A stretch of 64,000 bases of DNA from Escherichia coli (GTDB lineage Bacteria; Pseudomonadota; Gammaproteobacteria; Enterobacterales; Enterobacteriaceae). Where the stretch lies: assembly GCF_030013205.1 (NCBI RefSeq), contig NZ_CP122648.1. One strand, given 5' to 3'. Every line of letters starts with the position of its first letter. Position 1 is the stretch's first letter. Of the stretch, positions 13,124 to 40,379 are shown piece by piece. The notes under the pieces are model-generated. The model was not told the origin of the DNA. It saw only the letters and a list, made by a program, of their open reading frames with translations, and did not search any database. Position numbers and translations under genes: made by a program.

Positions 13124-14104
13124 ATGAACGCAATAATATCGCCTGATTATTACTATATTCTTACCGTTGCTGGTCAGTCTAATGCCATGGCGTATGGCGA
13201 AGGACTGCCATTACCGGACAGGGAAGATGCGCCTCATCCCAGAATTAAACAATTAGCGAGATTTGCGCATACGCATCCCGGAGGCCCGTCATGTCACTTT
13301 AACGACATTATTCCACTGACTCACTGCCCACACGATGTTCAGGATATGCAGGGTTATCACCATCCTCTGGCAACGAATCATCAAACACAGTACGGCACCG
13401 TTGGCCAGGCACTGCATATAGCACGGAAATTACTGCCCTTTATTCCTGATAATGCAGGGGTTCTCATCGTTCCGTGTTGCCGTGGCGGATCGGCTTTTAC
13501 CGCGGGCAGCGAAGGAACATATTCAGAACGGCACGGAGCCAGCCATGATGCTTGTCGTTGGGGAACGGATACTCCGCTATACCAGGATTTAGTCAGCAGA
13601 ACGCGAGCCGCACTGGCAAAAAATCCGCATAACAAATTCCTCGGCGTATGCTGGATGCAAGGCGAATTTGACTTAATGACCAGTGACTACGCGTCACACC
13701 CTCAACACTTTAATCATATGGTTGAAGCCTTTCGTAGGGATCTAAAACAATACCATTCTCAGCTTAATAATATTACTGACGCACCGTGGTTTTGCGGCGA
13801 TACCACCTGGTACTGGAAAGAAAATTTCCCTCATGCGTATGAAGTTATTTATGGCAATTATCAAAATAATGTTTTAGCCAATATTATTTTCGTCGACTTC
13901 CAGCAACAAGGTGAAAGAGGACTGACGAACGCGCCTGATGAAGACCCGGACGATTTAAGCACGGGATATTACGGTTCAGCGTACCGGTCACCGGAGAACT
14001 GGACGACGGCACTGCGAAGCAGTCATTTCAGCACGGCAGCCCGTCGGGGGATTATTTCTGACAAGTTTGTAGAAGCAATTTTGCAGTTTTGGCGCGAAAG
14101 GTGA
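13124..14104 (+). CDS. nanS: NanS 9-O-acetyl-N-acetylneuraminate esterase (326 aa)
   Basis: ATG at 13124 gives MNAIISPDYYYILTVAGQSNAMAYGEGLPLP...; follows nanM. Confidence 0.88.
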   Translation: MNAIISPDYYYILTVAGQSNAMAYGEGLPLPDREDAPHPRIKQLARFAHTHPGGPSCHFNDIIPLTHCPHDVQDMQGYHHPLATNHQTQYGTVGQALHIARKLLPFIPDNAGVLIVPCCRGGSAFTAGSEGTYSERHGASHDACRWGTDTPLYQDLVSRTRAALAKNPHNKFLGVCWMQGEFDLMTSDYASHPQHFNHMVEAFRRDLKQYHSQLNNITDAPWFCGDTTWYWKENFPHAYEVIYGNYQNNVLANIIFVDFQQQGERGLTNAPDEDPDDLSTGYYGSAYRSPENWTTALRSSHFSTAARRGIISDKFVEAILQFWRER

Positions 14105-15591: not shown

Positions 15592-16077
15592 TCAGTCGAT
15601 GATGCGCATAATGGCGCTGCATTCCGGATGCTGCAGGGCGTAATCCCGCAGCCGGTAATAATGGACCGTCATGGCATAACACTCCGTACGACAGGCATGA
15701 TGACTGTACGTCATCAGACAGGCAGCAATGCCGGCAGCTTCCGGACTCATTTCAGCGCGGTTACCGTTCATGGCATTGAACAGTACCCATGTTTCGTCAT
15801 CATCGTCATCCGGTTCGGGTGCCATAAATGCCCCGCCGTTGTTCAGGGTGTACAGATTCCAGATACCACCGCAGTAGTCTTCACACAGACGGTCCATCCA
15901 GCCGAAGACACGGGGCTCCAGGGTCACCCACTGTGGAATGAGGCCAAAGTGCTGCGGCCAGAAGCTGATGCGCTGTTCATCAGGGACGAGGGTGGCAACC
16001 AACTGAGGCTGGTCATTCCCTGATGCAGCGGTTACGGAAACAGAAGATGTGGTGGAATTATGTGAAATGGTTTTCAT
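15592..16077 (-). CDS. KlcA/ArdB-family antirestriction protein (161 aa)
   Basis: Family motif FWPQHFG...CEDYCGGIWNLYTLNNGGAFMAP. Confidence 0.85.
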   Translation of the reverse strand: MKTISHNSTTSSVSVTAASGNDQPQLVATLVPDEQRISFWPQHFGLIPQWVTLEPRVFGWMDRLCEDYCGGIWNLYTLNNGGAFMAPEPDDDDDETWVLFNAMNGNRAEMSPEAAGIAACLMTYSHHACRTECYAMTVHYYRLRDYALQHPECSAIMRIID

Positions 16078-17310: not shown

Positions 17311-17772
17311 TTGATATTTACTGAGAGCTCAGATCAACTTTCCAGGGCAACAGATCGCGTAACGGAAGCTGCCTGCTGGGCTCATGCCCGCCGAAAGATC
17401 CACGATGTGCACGTCCGCATCCCGTCAGCACTGACGGAAGAAGCCCTGGAGCAGATCGGTCAGTTGTACGCCATAGAGGCGGATATAAGGGGAATGCCGG
17501 CAGAGCAGCGGCTTGCTGAACGTCAGCGAAAAACGAAACCGCTGTTGAAATCCCTGGAAAGCTGGTTGCGTGAAAAGATGAAGACCCTGTTCTTCGGCTC
17601 TGGCCATGGTGGTGAGCGGGGAGCGCTACTGTACAGCCTGATCGGGACGTGCAAACTGAATGACGTGGATCCAGAAAGCTACCTTCGCCATGTGCCTGGC
17701 GTCATAGCAGACTGGCCGGTCAACCGGGTCAGCGAACTGCTTCCGTGGCGCATAGCACTGCCAGCTGAATAA
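17311..17772 (+). pseudogene. IS66-family transposase (TnpC) internal/C-terminal fragment
   Basis: ...[16 protein letters not shown]...YAIEADIRG...[29 protein letters not shown]...ELLPW matches IS66 TnpC blocks, but ORF is only 153 aa with no full-length frame. Confidence 0.7.
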
Positions 17773-18010
17773 CACATCCCCGTCAATACGGCCCTCGCTG
17801 TACGCTTACTTTTGTTCGGACTGCTTATGGCCTTTTTCCACTGGTGTAGCAGGAAAGTTAACCGGCTGCCACCATGAGATGACGTGTAAACCGTGCAGGC
17901 ATGTTTTCACGTGGTGACGCTTTCATTGGGGGTCTACGCCGGAACCCCAATATTGTTCACATACATGAATTTGAAAAACTAAGCGATACTGCTGTCCGTA
18001 CCTTATAAAC

Positions 18011-19384
18011 TTATTTCAACGCTTCCGGCAGCGTCACAATCCACAGTTCACTGTCAGACTCCGGTTTCTCCAGTGGCTTCACTCTGAGGGTCGTTTCAAC
18101 CTGCTTGTCGTCAAGCGTCAGCTTTCCTTCCGCGTTCACCCGATAATCCTTGAATGTCTTGCCCTCGACCGGATGTTGCATCGCCACCTTCACGCCAAAG
18201 TCGTTATCGTTCGCCACCGCCAGCGTTTTGCTGTCGATCAGCGCCAACCCTTCAGCCTTCTCCTGCTGCCAGCCCAAGGAGCGCAGATCAACAACCTGCG
18301 TTTTCTGCGCAAGGGTAATGCCGCGCTGTGACAGGGTTTTCTCATCATCAAACTCCGGATACTCACCCGGCTTGTCGAAGCCTGACAGGTCGCTCGCCTT
18401 ATTGAGATCGACCTCGTAAATCAGGTTACGCATTCTGTTGTTTTTATCTCTTCCCTGTTCGATCAGCAGGATGTGCTGGTTATCGAGCGCCACGATGTCT
18501 CCGATTTTAGCGTCGCTGTTTTTGCTGTAGGCCGCGCTGTCGATAGGATAACCGTACATCGCGGTTTTTCCGCTTGCCGGATCGAAGCTCACCAGACGCG
18601 TAAACAGCGCCTTTTTCTTGCTCTTAGCGTCGATATCCAGCGTACTTTGCACGGCGACAATAATACGCCCGTCCGGCATACGGGTGAGGCCTTCAAAGCC
18701 GCGGTTCGCCTGACGCCATTTGAGGATATTTGGCAAACCGCCCGCAATCGCTTTTTCCCCTTCCGCCGCCTGCGGACCGTGGATTGCCAGGATTTTCCCT
18801 TTACTGTCGATGTTAATCAGGAACGGGCCATACTCATCGCACAGCCAGTAACCTCCTTTACCATCCGGAGTGATCCCTTCCGTATCCAGCCCGCGATTAT
18901 CCCCCTTCAGTCTATGTAACGTGTCGCTGAAGGCCACTTCATTGGTGGAGCCAATCACGTCGCTTGCCAGCGGCAGACCGTTGATCGCGCCTTTATCGTC
19001 ATGCAGAGGACGGGGATCGATGGCCTCCGCTTTGCCGTTTTGTACACGAATCGTCATCAGCAGCGGCGCGAAATCTGGCGTAACGAAAATTTTAGTTTCG
19101 TTTTTCCCCTCTTTCGGTGAATCCGCGTTCGGACCGCGATCGGTAATGGTTGCGAATGTCAGGGCATCGCCCTGTTTACCGGTGAACAGCAGGCCAGAAC
19201 CTATCCCAACCGGAAGGCCGTTCGGGAATGCACTGGCAAATGCGCCGGCGTAGTTCACGTGCGTGCCTTCTGGAAAACTGACGACATAGCGCTCAGCCGT
19301 AGGTTGTGCCGCCAGGGCAGAGAAAGAGAGCGTACAACCGATTAGCACGGGAATAATTTTTCTTTTCATATTGTTAGCATCCAT
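18011..19384 (-). CDS. Secreted hypothetical protein (457 aa), possibly phytase-like esterase / beta-propeller family
   Basis: N-terminal signal peptide MKRKIIPVLIGCTLSFSALAAQP; long soluble domain; family assignment tentative. Confidence 0.55.
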   Translation of the reverse strand: MDANNMKRKIIPVLIGCTLSFSALAAQPTAERYVVSFPEGTHVNYAGAFASAFPNGLPVGIGSGLLFTGKQGDALTFATITDRGPNADSPKEGKNETKIFVTPDFAPLLMTIRVQNGKAEAIDPRPLHDDKGAINGLPLASDVIGSTNEVAFSDTLHRLKGDNRGLDTEGITPDGKGGYWLCDEYGPFLINIDSKGKILAIHGPQAAEGEKAIAGGLPNILKWRQANRGFEGLTRMPDGRIIVAVQSTLDIDAKSKKKALFTRLVSFDPASGKTAMYGYPIDSAAYSKNSDAKIGDIVALDNQHILLIEQGRDKNNRMRNLIYEVDLNKASDLSGFDKPGEYPEFDDEKTLSQRGITLAQKTQVVDLRSLGWQQEKAEGLALIDSKTLAVANDNDFGVKVAMQHPVEGKTFKDYRVNAEGKLTLDDKQVETTLRVKPLEKPESDSELWIVTLPEALK

Positions 19385-19639
19385 AAAGTGAAGATCACAC
19401 TACACCATAAAGAAGAAACGAGTCAGGAAAATGACATCGAATGGCAACATGCGCGGGCCTGAGGCCAAAGAAATGTAAAACACTGTTGTTATTTGTAACA
19501 ACGGAAACATTTACGGAAATTATTTGTCTTTCTTCGTGATCAAAAATGCTGTGTCTTGTTGGATTGGAGTGATGAGGGCTGCGTTTAGGAAACGCCCTAT
19601 ATTGTACGGTTGCATTATCGCGGTAGGGGTAATGCACGT

Positions 19640-19859
19640 GTCAGTATGATGAGCTGACCACACTCACGTGGGTGGACTGGTATAACAATCGACGATTGCT
19701 GGAAAGGCAGGGCCATATCCCACCGGCAGAAGCAGAAAAAGCTTATTATGCTTCCATCGGAAACGATGATCTGGCAGCCTGAGTTCACAGATAAAACACT
19801 CTCCAGGAAACCCGGGGCGGTTCACTTAGCCGCGTGTCCATTATTGCTGGATAAGATCA
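19640..19859 (+). mobile_element. IS3-family 3' remnant: last ~46 codons of orfB (19645-19785) plus terminal inverted repeat ending ...GGATAAGATCA
   Basis: Translation ...YDELTTLTWVDWYNNRRLLERQGHIPPAEAEKAYYASIGNDDLAA-stop; reverse complement of the end reads TGATCTTATCCAGCAATAATGGACACGCGGCTAAGTGA, an IS3-type terminus; no upstream remainder. Confidence 0.7.
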
Positions 19860-20069: not shown

Positions 20070-20587
20070 ATGTCTGACCGCGCCACTACCACAGCTTCCT
20101 TAACGTTCGAGTCGCTTTATGGCACACATCACGGCTGGTTGAAAAGCTGGCTGACGCGCAAACTCCAGTCTGCTTTTGATGCAGATGACATTGCCCAGGA
20201 CACTTTTTTGCGGGTAATGGTCAGCGAAACGCTCTCGACGATCCGCGATCCTCGCTCCTTCCTCTGCACTATCGCCAAACGCGTGATGGTGGACCTGTTT
20301 CGCCGAAACGCGCTGGAAAAAGCGTATCTGGAGATGCTGGCGCTTATGCCGGAGGGGGGAGCGTCTTCACCTGAGGAACGCGAAAGCCAACTCGAGACCC
20401 TACAACTCCTCGACAGCATGCTGGACGGGCTAAACGGCAAAACACGTGAAGCGTTTCTGCTTTCGCAACTGGATGGTCTGACATACAGCGAGATTGCGCA
20501 CAAACTCGGTGTTTCCATCAGCTCCGTGAAAAAATACGTGGCGAAAGCCGTCGAGCACTGCCTGCTGTTCCGTCTGGAGTATGGGTT

Positions 20588-20591
<4 letters not shown>
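20070..20591 (+). CDS. fecI: FecI ECF sigma factor (173 aa)
   Basis: [52 protein letters not shown]... Confidence 0.95.
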
Positions 20592-40294: not shown

Positions 40295-40379
40295 TGGTGC
40301 CGAAGGCCGGACTCGAACCGGCACGTATTTCTACGGTTGATTTTGAATCAACTGCGTCTACCGATTTCGCCACTTCGGC
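40295..40379 (-). tRNA. leuX: tRNA-Leu (CAA anticodon), leuX
   Basis: Reverse complement reads GCCGAAGTGGCGAAATCGGTAGACGCAGTTGATTCAAAATCAACCGTAGAAATACGTGCCGGTTCGAGTCCGGCCTTCGGCACCA with long variable arm and CCA end. Confidence 0.95.

Follow-up and report, generated by a model that had tools for sequence, protein, structure and literature searches.

The stretch of DNA analysed here (the window) comprises 64,000 nucleotides (nt) of Escherichia coli sequence from contig NZ_CP122648.1 of assembly GCF_030013205.1. On its minus strand, at positions 18011-19369, it carries a gene for a phytase-like protein of the Pfam family PF13449. The gene lies between the remnants of two insertion sequences (IS), one of the IS66 family and one of the IS3 family, next to the divergently transcribed ferric-citrate (fec) locus. 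An earlier note on this DNA, made from the sequence alone, had described the product as a signal-peptide protein of 457 amino acids (aa). The list of open reading frames indeed contains an intact frame of this length at 18011-19384 on the minus strand. In 44 of 44 orthologs, however, translation starts at the Met equivalent to residue 6, with the motif MK[RIL]K, which places the true start at window position 19369 and gives a protein of 452 aa. This product is identical to RefSeq WP_000823243.1, which is annotated with the same length, and the ATG at 19384 falls within the ribosome-binding region of the start at 19369. The coding sequence, 452 codons plus stop, is supported by Pfam, RefSeq, the 44 orthologs, an AlphaFold2 (AF2) model and the ratio of nonsynonymous to synonymous substitution rates (dN/dS).

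The signal peptide in the earlier description stood. Residues 1-20 (MKRKIIPVLIGCTLSFSALA, encoded by 19310-19369 on the minus strand) read as a Sec type I signal peptide, with a basic n-region, a hydrophobic core and an A-x-A/A cleavage site before AQP. This site is conserved in 13 orthologs, in which A20 is invariant, and the region forms an N-terminal helix with low predicted local distance difference test (pLDDT) values in the AF2 model. A lipoprotein signal based on the sequence LIGC was considered and rejected, because Buttiauxella, Cronobacter, Serratia and Yersinia have Ala, Ser or Leu in place of Cys12. The poor conservation of this Cys and the retention of A-x-A/A argue for a Sec type I signal, and the product is predicted to be a soluble exported protein.

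The protein matches PF13449 (Esterase-like activity of phytase) over the full length of the profile (positions 4-284 of 284; E 4.6e-43; 148.6 bits, with a cutoff of 27.6). The AF2 model is a beta-propeller with a pLDDT of 96.2 and a predicted template modeling score (pTM) of 0.92, and the suggestion of a phytase-like esterase or beta-propeller was thus borne out. A scan against NCBIfam gave no family match. The motifs TDRGPN, DxEG, DEYGP, NRGFEG, GD, EQG, KAEG and NDNDF are all present and are at least 90% conserved among 91 homologs. The same set spans 30-90% identity; among its polar positions, those that are invariant or nearly so are D77, R78, N81, E144, D162, E164, E179, N222, R223, E226, R258, D291, E304, E339, K371, E373, D388 and D390. 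Such a dense set of acidic and basic residues fits what would be expected of a metal-assisted phosphate-binding site.

Sequence searches of the PDB, both with the protein and with a profile of the 91 sequences, detected no solved structure of the family; the matches covered single blades only and came from designed 'Pizza' propellers, Drp35 and YjiK. A Foldseek search against the PDB returned generic, uninformative NHL and propeller matches with low TM-scores. Human soluble calcium-activated nucleotidase SCAN-1 (PDB 2h2n) shares only 12% identity with the window protein, at which level homology is not established. The C-terminal domain of E. coli YjiK (PDB 3qqz, 'SdiA-regulated' PF06977) shares 17%, and since the function of YjiK is itself not known, this match is uninformative with regard to chemistry.

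The family name goes back to an analogy with the Bacillus beta-propeller phytases (PhyC / TS-Phy, PF02333), which are secreted, rich in acidic residues and hydrolyze phosphate esters in a Ca2+-dependent manner, the latter property being putative in the window protein. The window protein has no Pfam match to PF02333, and Bacillus phytase is absent among its top 60 matches; the protein is 'phytase-like' by name and lies outside the Bacillus family. A second group of comparable proteins is formed by PhoX and Psip1, Pho-regulated, exported, metal-dependent beta-propeller alkaline phosphatases that scavenge phosphate (PMC11098088). We propose the same mode of action here, although neither protein gave a sequence match or a top-ranking structural match to the window protein. 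The Cys that serves as an iron ligand in PhoX has no counterpart, and C177 of the window protein is conserved only in close orthologs. Psip1 was also considered as a characterized relative and rejected, as it belongs to a different family and is only sometimes fused to a phytase-like domain (PMC11098088). Within PF13449, many members are large and carry 5'-nucleotidase, SLH or GDPD domains, whereas the window protein represents a single-domain, 452-aa enterobacterial form.

Alignment of upstream regions from orthologs of seven lineages showed, besides the start region, one visibly conserved island, a direct repeat resembling the Pho box (consensus CTGTCAT-A(AT)A(TA)-CTGT(CA)A(CT); PMC3465305). 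We then considered the 250 nt upstream of the start codon at 45 loci, which cover approximately 25 named genera as well as unclassified isolates and metagenome-assembled genomes (MAGs). Forty of these 45 promoters contain, on the sense strand and between -85 and -58, a site that matches at least 11 of the 14 core positions, and most of the 40 sites are at or below the floor set by 300 shuffles (P <= 0.01). The background of such sites is 1e-4 per position, i.e., about 0.1 chance matches are expected in this slot across the 45 sequences. All 14 positions match in Cronobacter, Franconibacter and Biostraticola, 13 in Serratia, and 12 in Wohlfahrtiimonas, which is outside Enterobacterales; matrix scores reach 15-20 bits at the best-matching ortholog sites.

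The corresponding candidate PhoB site in the window is the direct repeat ATGTCAT-TTTC-CTGACTC (ATGTCATTTTCCTGACTC; 19420-19437, minus strand), which matches 11 of 14 core positions. A -10 hexamer, TATGGT, is predicted 10 nt downstream of it (19404-19409, minus strand), and the TAnGnT pattern at this position is conserved in the ortholog alignment. A box followed after 10 nt by a -10 hexamer, with the box replacing the -35 element, is presumably the geometry of the pstS promoter. A simple sigma-70 scan did not call a promoter here because there is no -35 element, a lack that is to be expected where a promoter depends on PhoB. The box is identical in other E. coli copies, and their promoter geometry is intact.

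Two further features of this upstream region were observed. E. coli copies have a 5-nt insertion in the predicted 5' untranslated region (5'UTR; window 19387-19393, minus strand; TAGTGTGATC versus TTG-----GC in Enterobacter), which puts the Pho box at -68 instead of -63, counted from the start codon, and leaves the spacing between the box and the -10 hexamer unchanged. In addition, three Enterobacter loci (L016, L024 and L026) have a second Pho-box-like element approximately 150 nt upstream, e.g., AAGTATTTCAACTGTCAC with 13.4 bits. The window equivalent (19470-19520, minus strand) is AAATGTTTCCGTTGTTAC, which is degraded and lies inside a 12-nt direct repeat, ATTTCCGTAAAT / GTTTCCGTTGTT. We examined this repeat, at about -150, as a second Pho or PhoP box and dismissed it: its period is 12 nt, the window copy matches 7 of 14 positions by eye, and only the Enterobacter half-site is convincing.

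Orthologs of the gene are chromosomal and widespread across Enterobacterales. Compared with the window protein, those of Enterobacter, Lelliottia and Pseudenterobacter are 86-91% identical and those of Pantoea, Pluralibacter and Scandinavium about 80%; the value falls to about 65% for Serratia, Yersinia, Cronobacter, Buttiauxella and Pectobacterium, and to about 50% for Wohlfahrtiimonas and for MAGs of Aeromonadaceae and Neisseriaceae. The dN/dS values calculated against the Enterobacter, Lelliottia and Pseudenterobacter orthologs are 0.09-0.11. When the window was compared by blastn with the chromosomal locus of Enterobacter hormaechei, homology was confined to 18010-19524 and ended exactly at the stop codon. 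The homologous part consists of the coding sequence and about 155 bp upstream of 19369, and other Enterobacter loci agree. Segment 19385-19524 (minus strand) is therefore native upstream DNA, comprising the promoter and the 5'UTR, that was captured with the gene. This restriction of homology to the gene and its upstream DNA shows a foreign origin and fits capture by an IS-associated rearrangement, and on these sequence comparisons the gene appears to be of Enterobacter-like chromosomal origin. Two ortholog copies occurred in assemblies that bear Firmicutes and Bacteroidota labels: one of 99% identity to the E. coli gene in an 'uncultured Ruminococcaceae' MAG (L015) and one of 78% identity, of enterobacterial type, in the assembly of 'Chryseobacterium sp. 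18061' (L041). Binning or culture contamination, not real transfer, most likely accounts for both.

To assess the distribution of the gene in E. coli, 5426 complete genomes were surveyed. The gene was found in 2261 of them (about 40%), always with at least 99% identity, and 66 copies were on plasmids. It is full length in 2190 of the 2261 carriers (about 97%); truncated variants (H64, H65, P0072 and P0081) also occur. These counts, together with strain K-12, which lacks the gene, mark it as accessory and not as the widely conserved core enzyme that would have refuted the earlier note. In K-12, the layout is fecI-ykiE-IS1F-yjhU, with an IS1 (IS1F) beside fecI-ykiE and the block beyond it missing. 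The published PhoB chromatin immunoprecipitation (ChIP) and expression data come from K-12 (PMC3465305), and its lack of the gene is probably the reason why the gene was never studied.

Taken together with the observations described below, these data lead us to a reading that we hold with somewhat better than even confidence: the gene would encode a periplasmic phosphoesterase that is activated by PhoB, exported through Sec and probably dependent on Ca2+. This enzyme would free phosphate from organic esters, and the fec island would carry its gene passively. Family, export signal, fold, foreign origin, distribution and the conservation of the Pho box among orthologs are shown by the analysis, and PhoB control in E. 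coli, enzymatic activity, metal dependence and substrate are inferred. Under phosphate starvation, phosphorylated PhoB would switch on the gene through the box that stands in place of the -35 element. The Sec pathway would then export the soluble beta-propeller enzyme to the periplasm, where a ring of invariant Asp, Glu and Asn together with Arg and Lys residues probably confers dependence on a metal, Ca2+. The enzyme would hydrolyze organic phosphate esters, with phosphodiesters, nucleotides and inositol phosphates as candidate substrates, and the freed phosphate would be taken up. With respect to its history, the gene and its promoter of about 155 bp would have left an Enterobacter-like chromosome, become fixed between IS66 and IS3 beside fecIRABCDE, and then spread as a passenger of the fec island in leuX islands, SRL-type islands and plasmids.

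Three independent hints point toward a role in phosphate metabolism. Fusions of the PF13449 domain to Metallophos/5'-nucleotidase domains occur in several large secreted proteins (P0169, P0154 and P0181), and a homolog of 42% identity has genes for a GDPD phosphodiesterase and a ugp-like ABC transporter as neighbors. In Nodularia, phosphate limitation induced a member of the family (NSP_RS03145, 'atypical alkaline phosphatase') more than 30-fold, and it was among the most strongly induced genes (PMC9846622); its connection to phosphate starvation was made by RNA-seq, that of the window gene by the Pho box. The conserved Pho box suggests that the protein scavenges phosphate rather than iron, and with regard to the niche-adaptation gene suggested in the earlier note, the evidence favors phosphate scavenging and not a trait particular to one strain. 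RefSeq and the literature already contain this protein, its placement in the family and its IS66/fec neighborhood. The sole new element is the prediction, from the conserved candidate PhoB site, that a stand-alone PF13449 subfamily belongs to the Pho regulon.

Several observations weigh against the phosphoesterase reading. Among the Pho boxes compared, that of E. coli is the weakest, with 11 of 14 positions and two mismatches in the promoter-proximal half-site CTGACTC. It does lie on the sense strand, replaces the -35 element and precedes the -10 hexamer by about 10 nt, as a member of the regulon should; yet it scores only -0.8 bits with a matrix built from 12 PhoB ChIP sites, whose training sites score 9.5-22.5 bits, and this matrix favors A-rich spacers and under-scores the T-rich spacers of this gene family. 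Because of this bias, the assessment was based on the number of matching core positions, tested against shuffled sequences, and on how constant the position of the box is among orthologs. Chance alone yields 13 sites with as good a core match in the 64-kb window, so that the case for the box rests on the ortholog comparison. The E. coli copy may respond only weakly to PhoB. Gene neighborhoods are of little help, as they vary from genus to genus and mark the gene as a stand-alone one. The closest solved folds are non-phosphatases. Moreover, literature searches found no enzyme assay of this subfamily or of close relatives, and no enzymology for either single-domain or multi-domain PF13449 forms; the name of the family is therefore an annotation and not a result. 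To our knowledge, the activity behind this name has never been measured by anyone.

The label 'phytase-like' would be misleading if the beta-propeller had a different chemistry, for example that of a lactonase, a cyclase or lyase, or a ligand-binding protein. The structural neighbors keep this option open, but we consider it unlikely given that the Pho box is conserved over about 25 named genera, that fusions to 5'-nucleotidase or metallophosphoesterase domains are found repeatedly, that one homolog stands beside GDPD and ugp genes, and that the Nodularia protein responds to phosphate limitation; the invariant mix of acidic residues with Arg and Lys would also fit metal-assisted phosphate binding. 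Another alternative concerns E. coli only: here the gene might be a mere hitchhiker on the fec island, poorly expressed or silent, of no benefit, and intact only through its recent acquisition. The identity of at least 99% among all E. coli copies indicates recent spread, within-E. coli dN/dS is near 1 (calculated from no more than about 4-5 changes), the Pho box is degraded compared with donor-like sequences, and the native 3' flank is lost. Truncated variants exist as well, and K-12 lost or never had the gene at no known cost. What makes this alternative rather unlikely in our view is that about 97% of carriers keep the gene at full length, that it is kept on plasmids without adjacent fec genes, and that its promoter geometry is intact and identical among copies. 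A silent gene in E. coli does not contradict a phosphoesterase function of the family; if the Pho-box prediction is wrong, the gene is a hitchhiker, i.e., routine mobile-element cargo.

The proximity to the fec locus could instead mean that the protein works with the ferric-citrate system, e.g., by freeing iron or citrate from complexes of the Fe(III)-phytate type, and was kept near fec for that reason. Linkage is tight: fecIRA is present in 2769 of the 5426 genomes, and a comparison with the 2261 genomes that have the gene indicates that about four of five fec-positive genomes carry it. A block of 2.9 kb that begins with the IS66 fragment and reaches the start of fecI occurs in 2153 genomes with at least 99% identity, and the arrangement is the same in the SRL island and in sequence type 131 (ST131). 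However, the gene is on the strand opposite to fecIRABCDE and divergent from fecI, with the IS3 remnant (and in many strains also an IS1) between them, which leaves no shared promoter and no co-transcription. Approximately 90 non-E. coli loci were searched, and no fec genes were found within 5 kb of the gene. On the 66-kb IncFIB plasmid NZ_CP036204.1 (L008), the IS66 fragment, the gene and the IS3 remnant are located as a block among P1-like phage genes (C1 repressor, phd/doc), with an IS1 nearby; fecIRA was not found within the 25 kb examined around the gene, which shows that the block can move separately from fec. The fec locus of K-12 is functional despite the missing gene, and the promoter motif is a Pho box. 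For these reasons, a role in ferric-citrate use appears very unlikely. A broader version of the phosphoesterase reading would see an unrecognized enterobacterial Pho-regulon member, namely a Ca2+-dependent phosphoesterase of beta-propeller fold in the periplasm, overlooked because it is missing from K-12. Together with fec, it would equip about 40% of E. coli to scavenge both phosphate and iron, acting for instance on Fe(III)-phytate or on nucleotide-rich host material in the gut, urinary tract or udder. We regard this version as improbable. A Peripla_BP_2 protein and a TonB-dependent receptor are encoded about 3-4 kb downstream of the ortholog in Serratia quinivorans (L012, 10662-13365); similarity to FecA in other loci is 21-25%, and this receptor neighbor is probably a coincidence.

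These considerations have consequences beyond the window. The fec island is studied as a fitness and virulence factor in E. coli from mastitis, urinary and bloodstream infections, and in about four of five fec-positive genomes the gene rides along, so that deleting or transferring 'the fec region' may also affect a second function that has escaped notice. If the Pho-box prediction is right, a widespread exported enzyme joins the Pho regulon of Enterobacter, Pantoea, Serratia, Cronobacter and many E. coli, and induction at low phosphate provides a simple handle for assigning a substrate to a large Pfam family.

The IS flanks reported in the earlier note were confirmed by Pfam and RefSeq, and their coordinates were right within a few tens of bases. 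An IS66-family 3' fragment occupies 17360-17809 on the plus strand; the C-terminal part of tnpC ends at 17772, and the terminal inverted repeat is at 17788-17809. Pfam detects DDE_Tnp_IS66 (E 2.6e-22) and IS66_C (E 6.8e-15), RefSeq annotates a partial transposase, and collinearity with the ST131 chromosomal locus (L009) begins at window position 17360. IS66 is reduced here to its last 450 bp, whereas ST131 has a complete element beside the gene, with inverted repeats at 13576-13597 and 15843-15864 of that locus, 2.3 kb apart. A 201-bp spacer without strand assignment (17810-18010) separates the end of IS66 from the stop codon; Enterobacter homology stops at 18010, and the spacer gave no convincing match to ortholog loci or IS. 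Along with the native 3' flank, which was cut off precisely at the stop codon, any terminator it contained was lost.

On the other side of the gene, an IS3-family remnant at 19651-19859 (plus strand) contains the last 43 codons of the transposase (translation ELTTLTWVDWYNNRRLL...) and the end of the element. RefSeq lists an 'IS3 family transposase, partial' at approximately 19651-19782, and 19651-19827 matches multi-copy IS3-family elements with 92-97% identity, followed by 38 bp resembling an inverted repeat that end at 19859. ST131 differs by an IS1 at the 19859/19860 junction, which separates the IS3 remnant from fecI and is absent in the window. The fecI gene itself (20070-20591, plus strand; identified from the open reading frames and RefSeq) is the first gene of the divergent ferric-citrate locus and belongs to a separate transcription unit; it is followed by fecR and fecA, on the strand opposite to the phytase-like gene. 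Composite transposon cargo was considered as an explanation for this layout and rejected, as the flanks belong to different families, IS66 and IS3, and both are truncated in the window. The idea that the gene was cargo delivered or trapped by IS activity was right about its origin, but the two remnants do not make a transposon.

The description of the gene as isolated, as though by a local event, did not hold: the IS66/gene/IS3/fecI layout is an old, fixed and widely shared block. More than 2100 genomes have it with at least 99% identity; it accompanies fecIRABCDE and was known from the SRL island. The gene was published in 2001 (Luck et al.) as orf34 of the Shigella flexneri SRL pathogenicity island, a 'putative periplasmic protein', and was re-annotated in 2020 as a protein of the same RefSeq family, with 99.78% identity (PMC6980539, Table 2). 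In the SRL island, which also carries fec, orf34 is followed by the IS66 genes orf35-37, and the order in ST131 is the same; the likeness to SRL rests on the table in PMC6980539. The window differs from SRL in that its IS66 is cut to the last 450 bp and in that it has no IS1 between the IS3 remnant and fecI.

Two other E. coli contigs (ABHNSZ010000033.1, L013, 6001-7353; and ABYSVP010000035.1, L014) encode a second, divergent homolog (P0078) that shares 71-72% identity with the window protein, and the Pho-box match upstream of it is weak (9 of 14). These contigs also carry genes for the heat-labile enterotoxin A and B subunits, STb, a PhoPQ-activated PqaA-like gene and a ParE toxin, and they look like a virulence plasmid of enterotoxigenic E. 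coli.

The wider surroundings of the block were also inspected. A tRNA-Leu(CAA) gene, presumably leuX, is located at 40295-40379 on the minus strand, and its placement puts the fec/phytase-like block in a leuX-associated island, with the nan/fim region on the other side. We take KpLE2 of K-12 to have a comparable layout, with leuX on one side and nan/fim on the other. Segment 15100-17283 is a CP4-type prophage remnant with genes for a RadC-like JAB protein and a KlcA-like antirestriction protein. It also has a DUF932 gene, which is intact here and interrupted by a complete IS66 in strain W13-16 (L001), so that the window stems from a related but distinct strain; a DUF905 gene is present as well.

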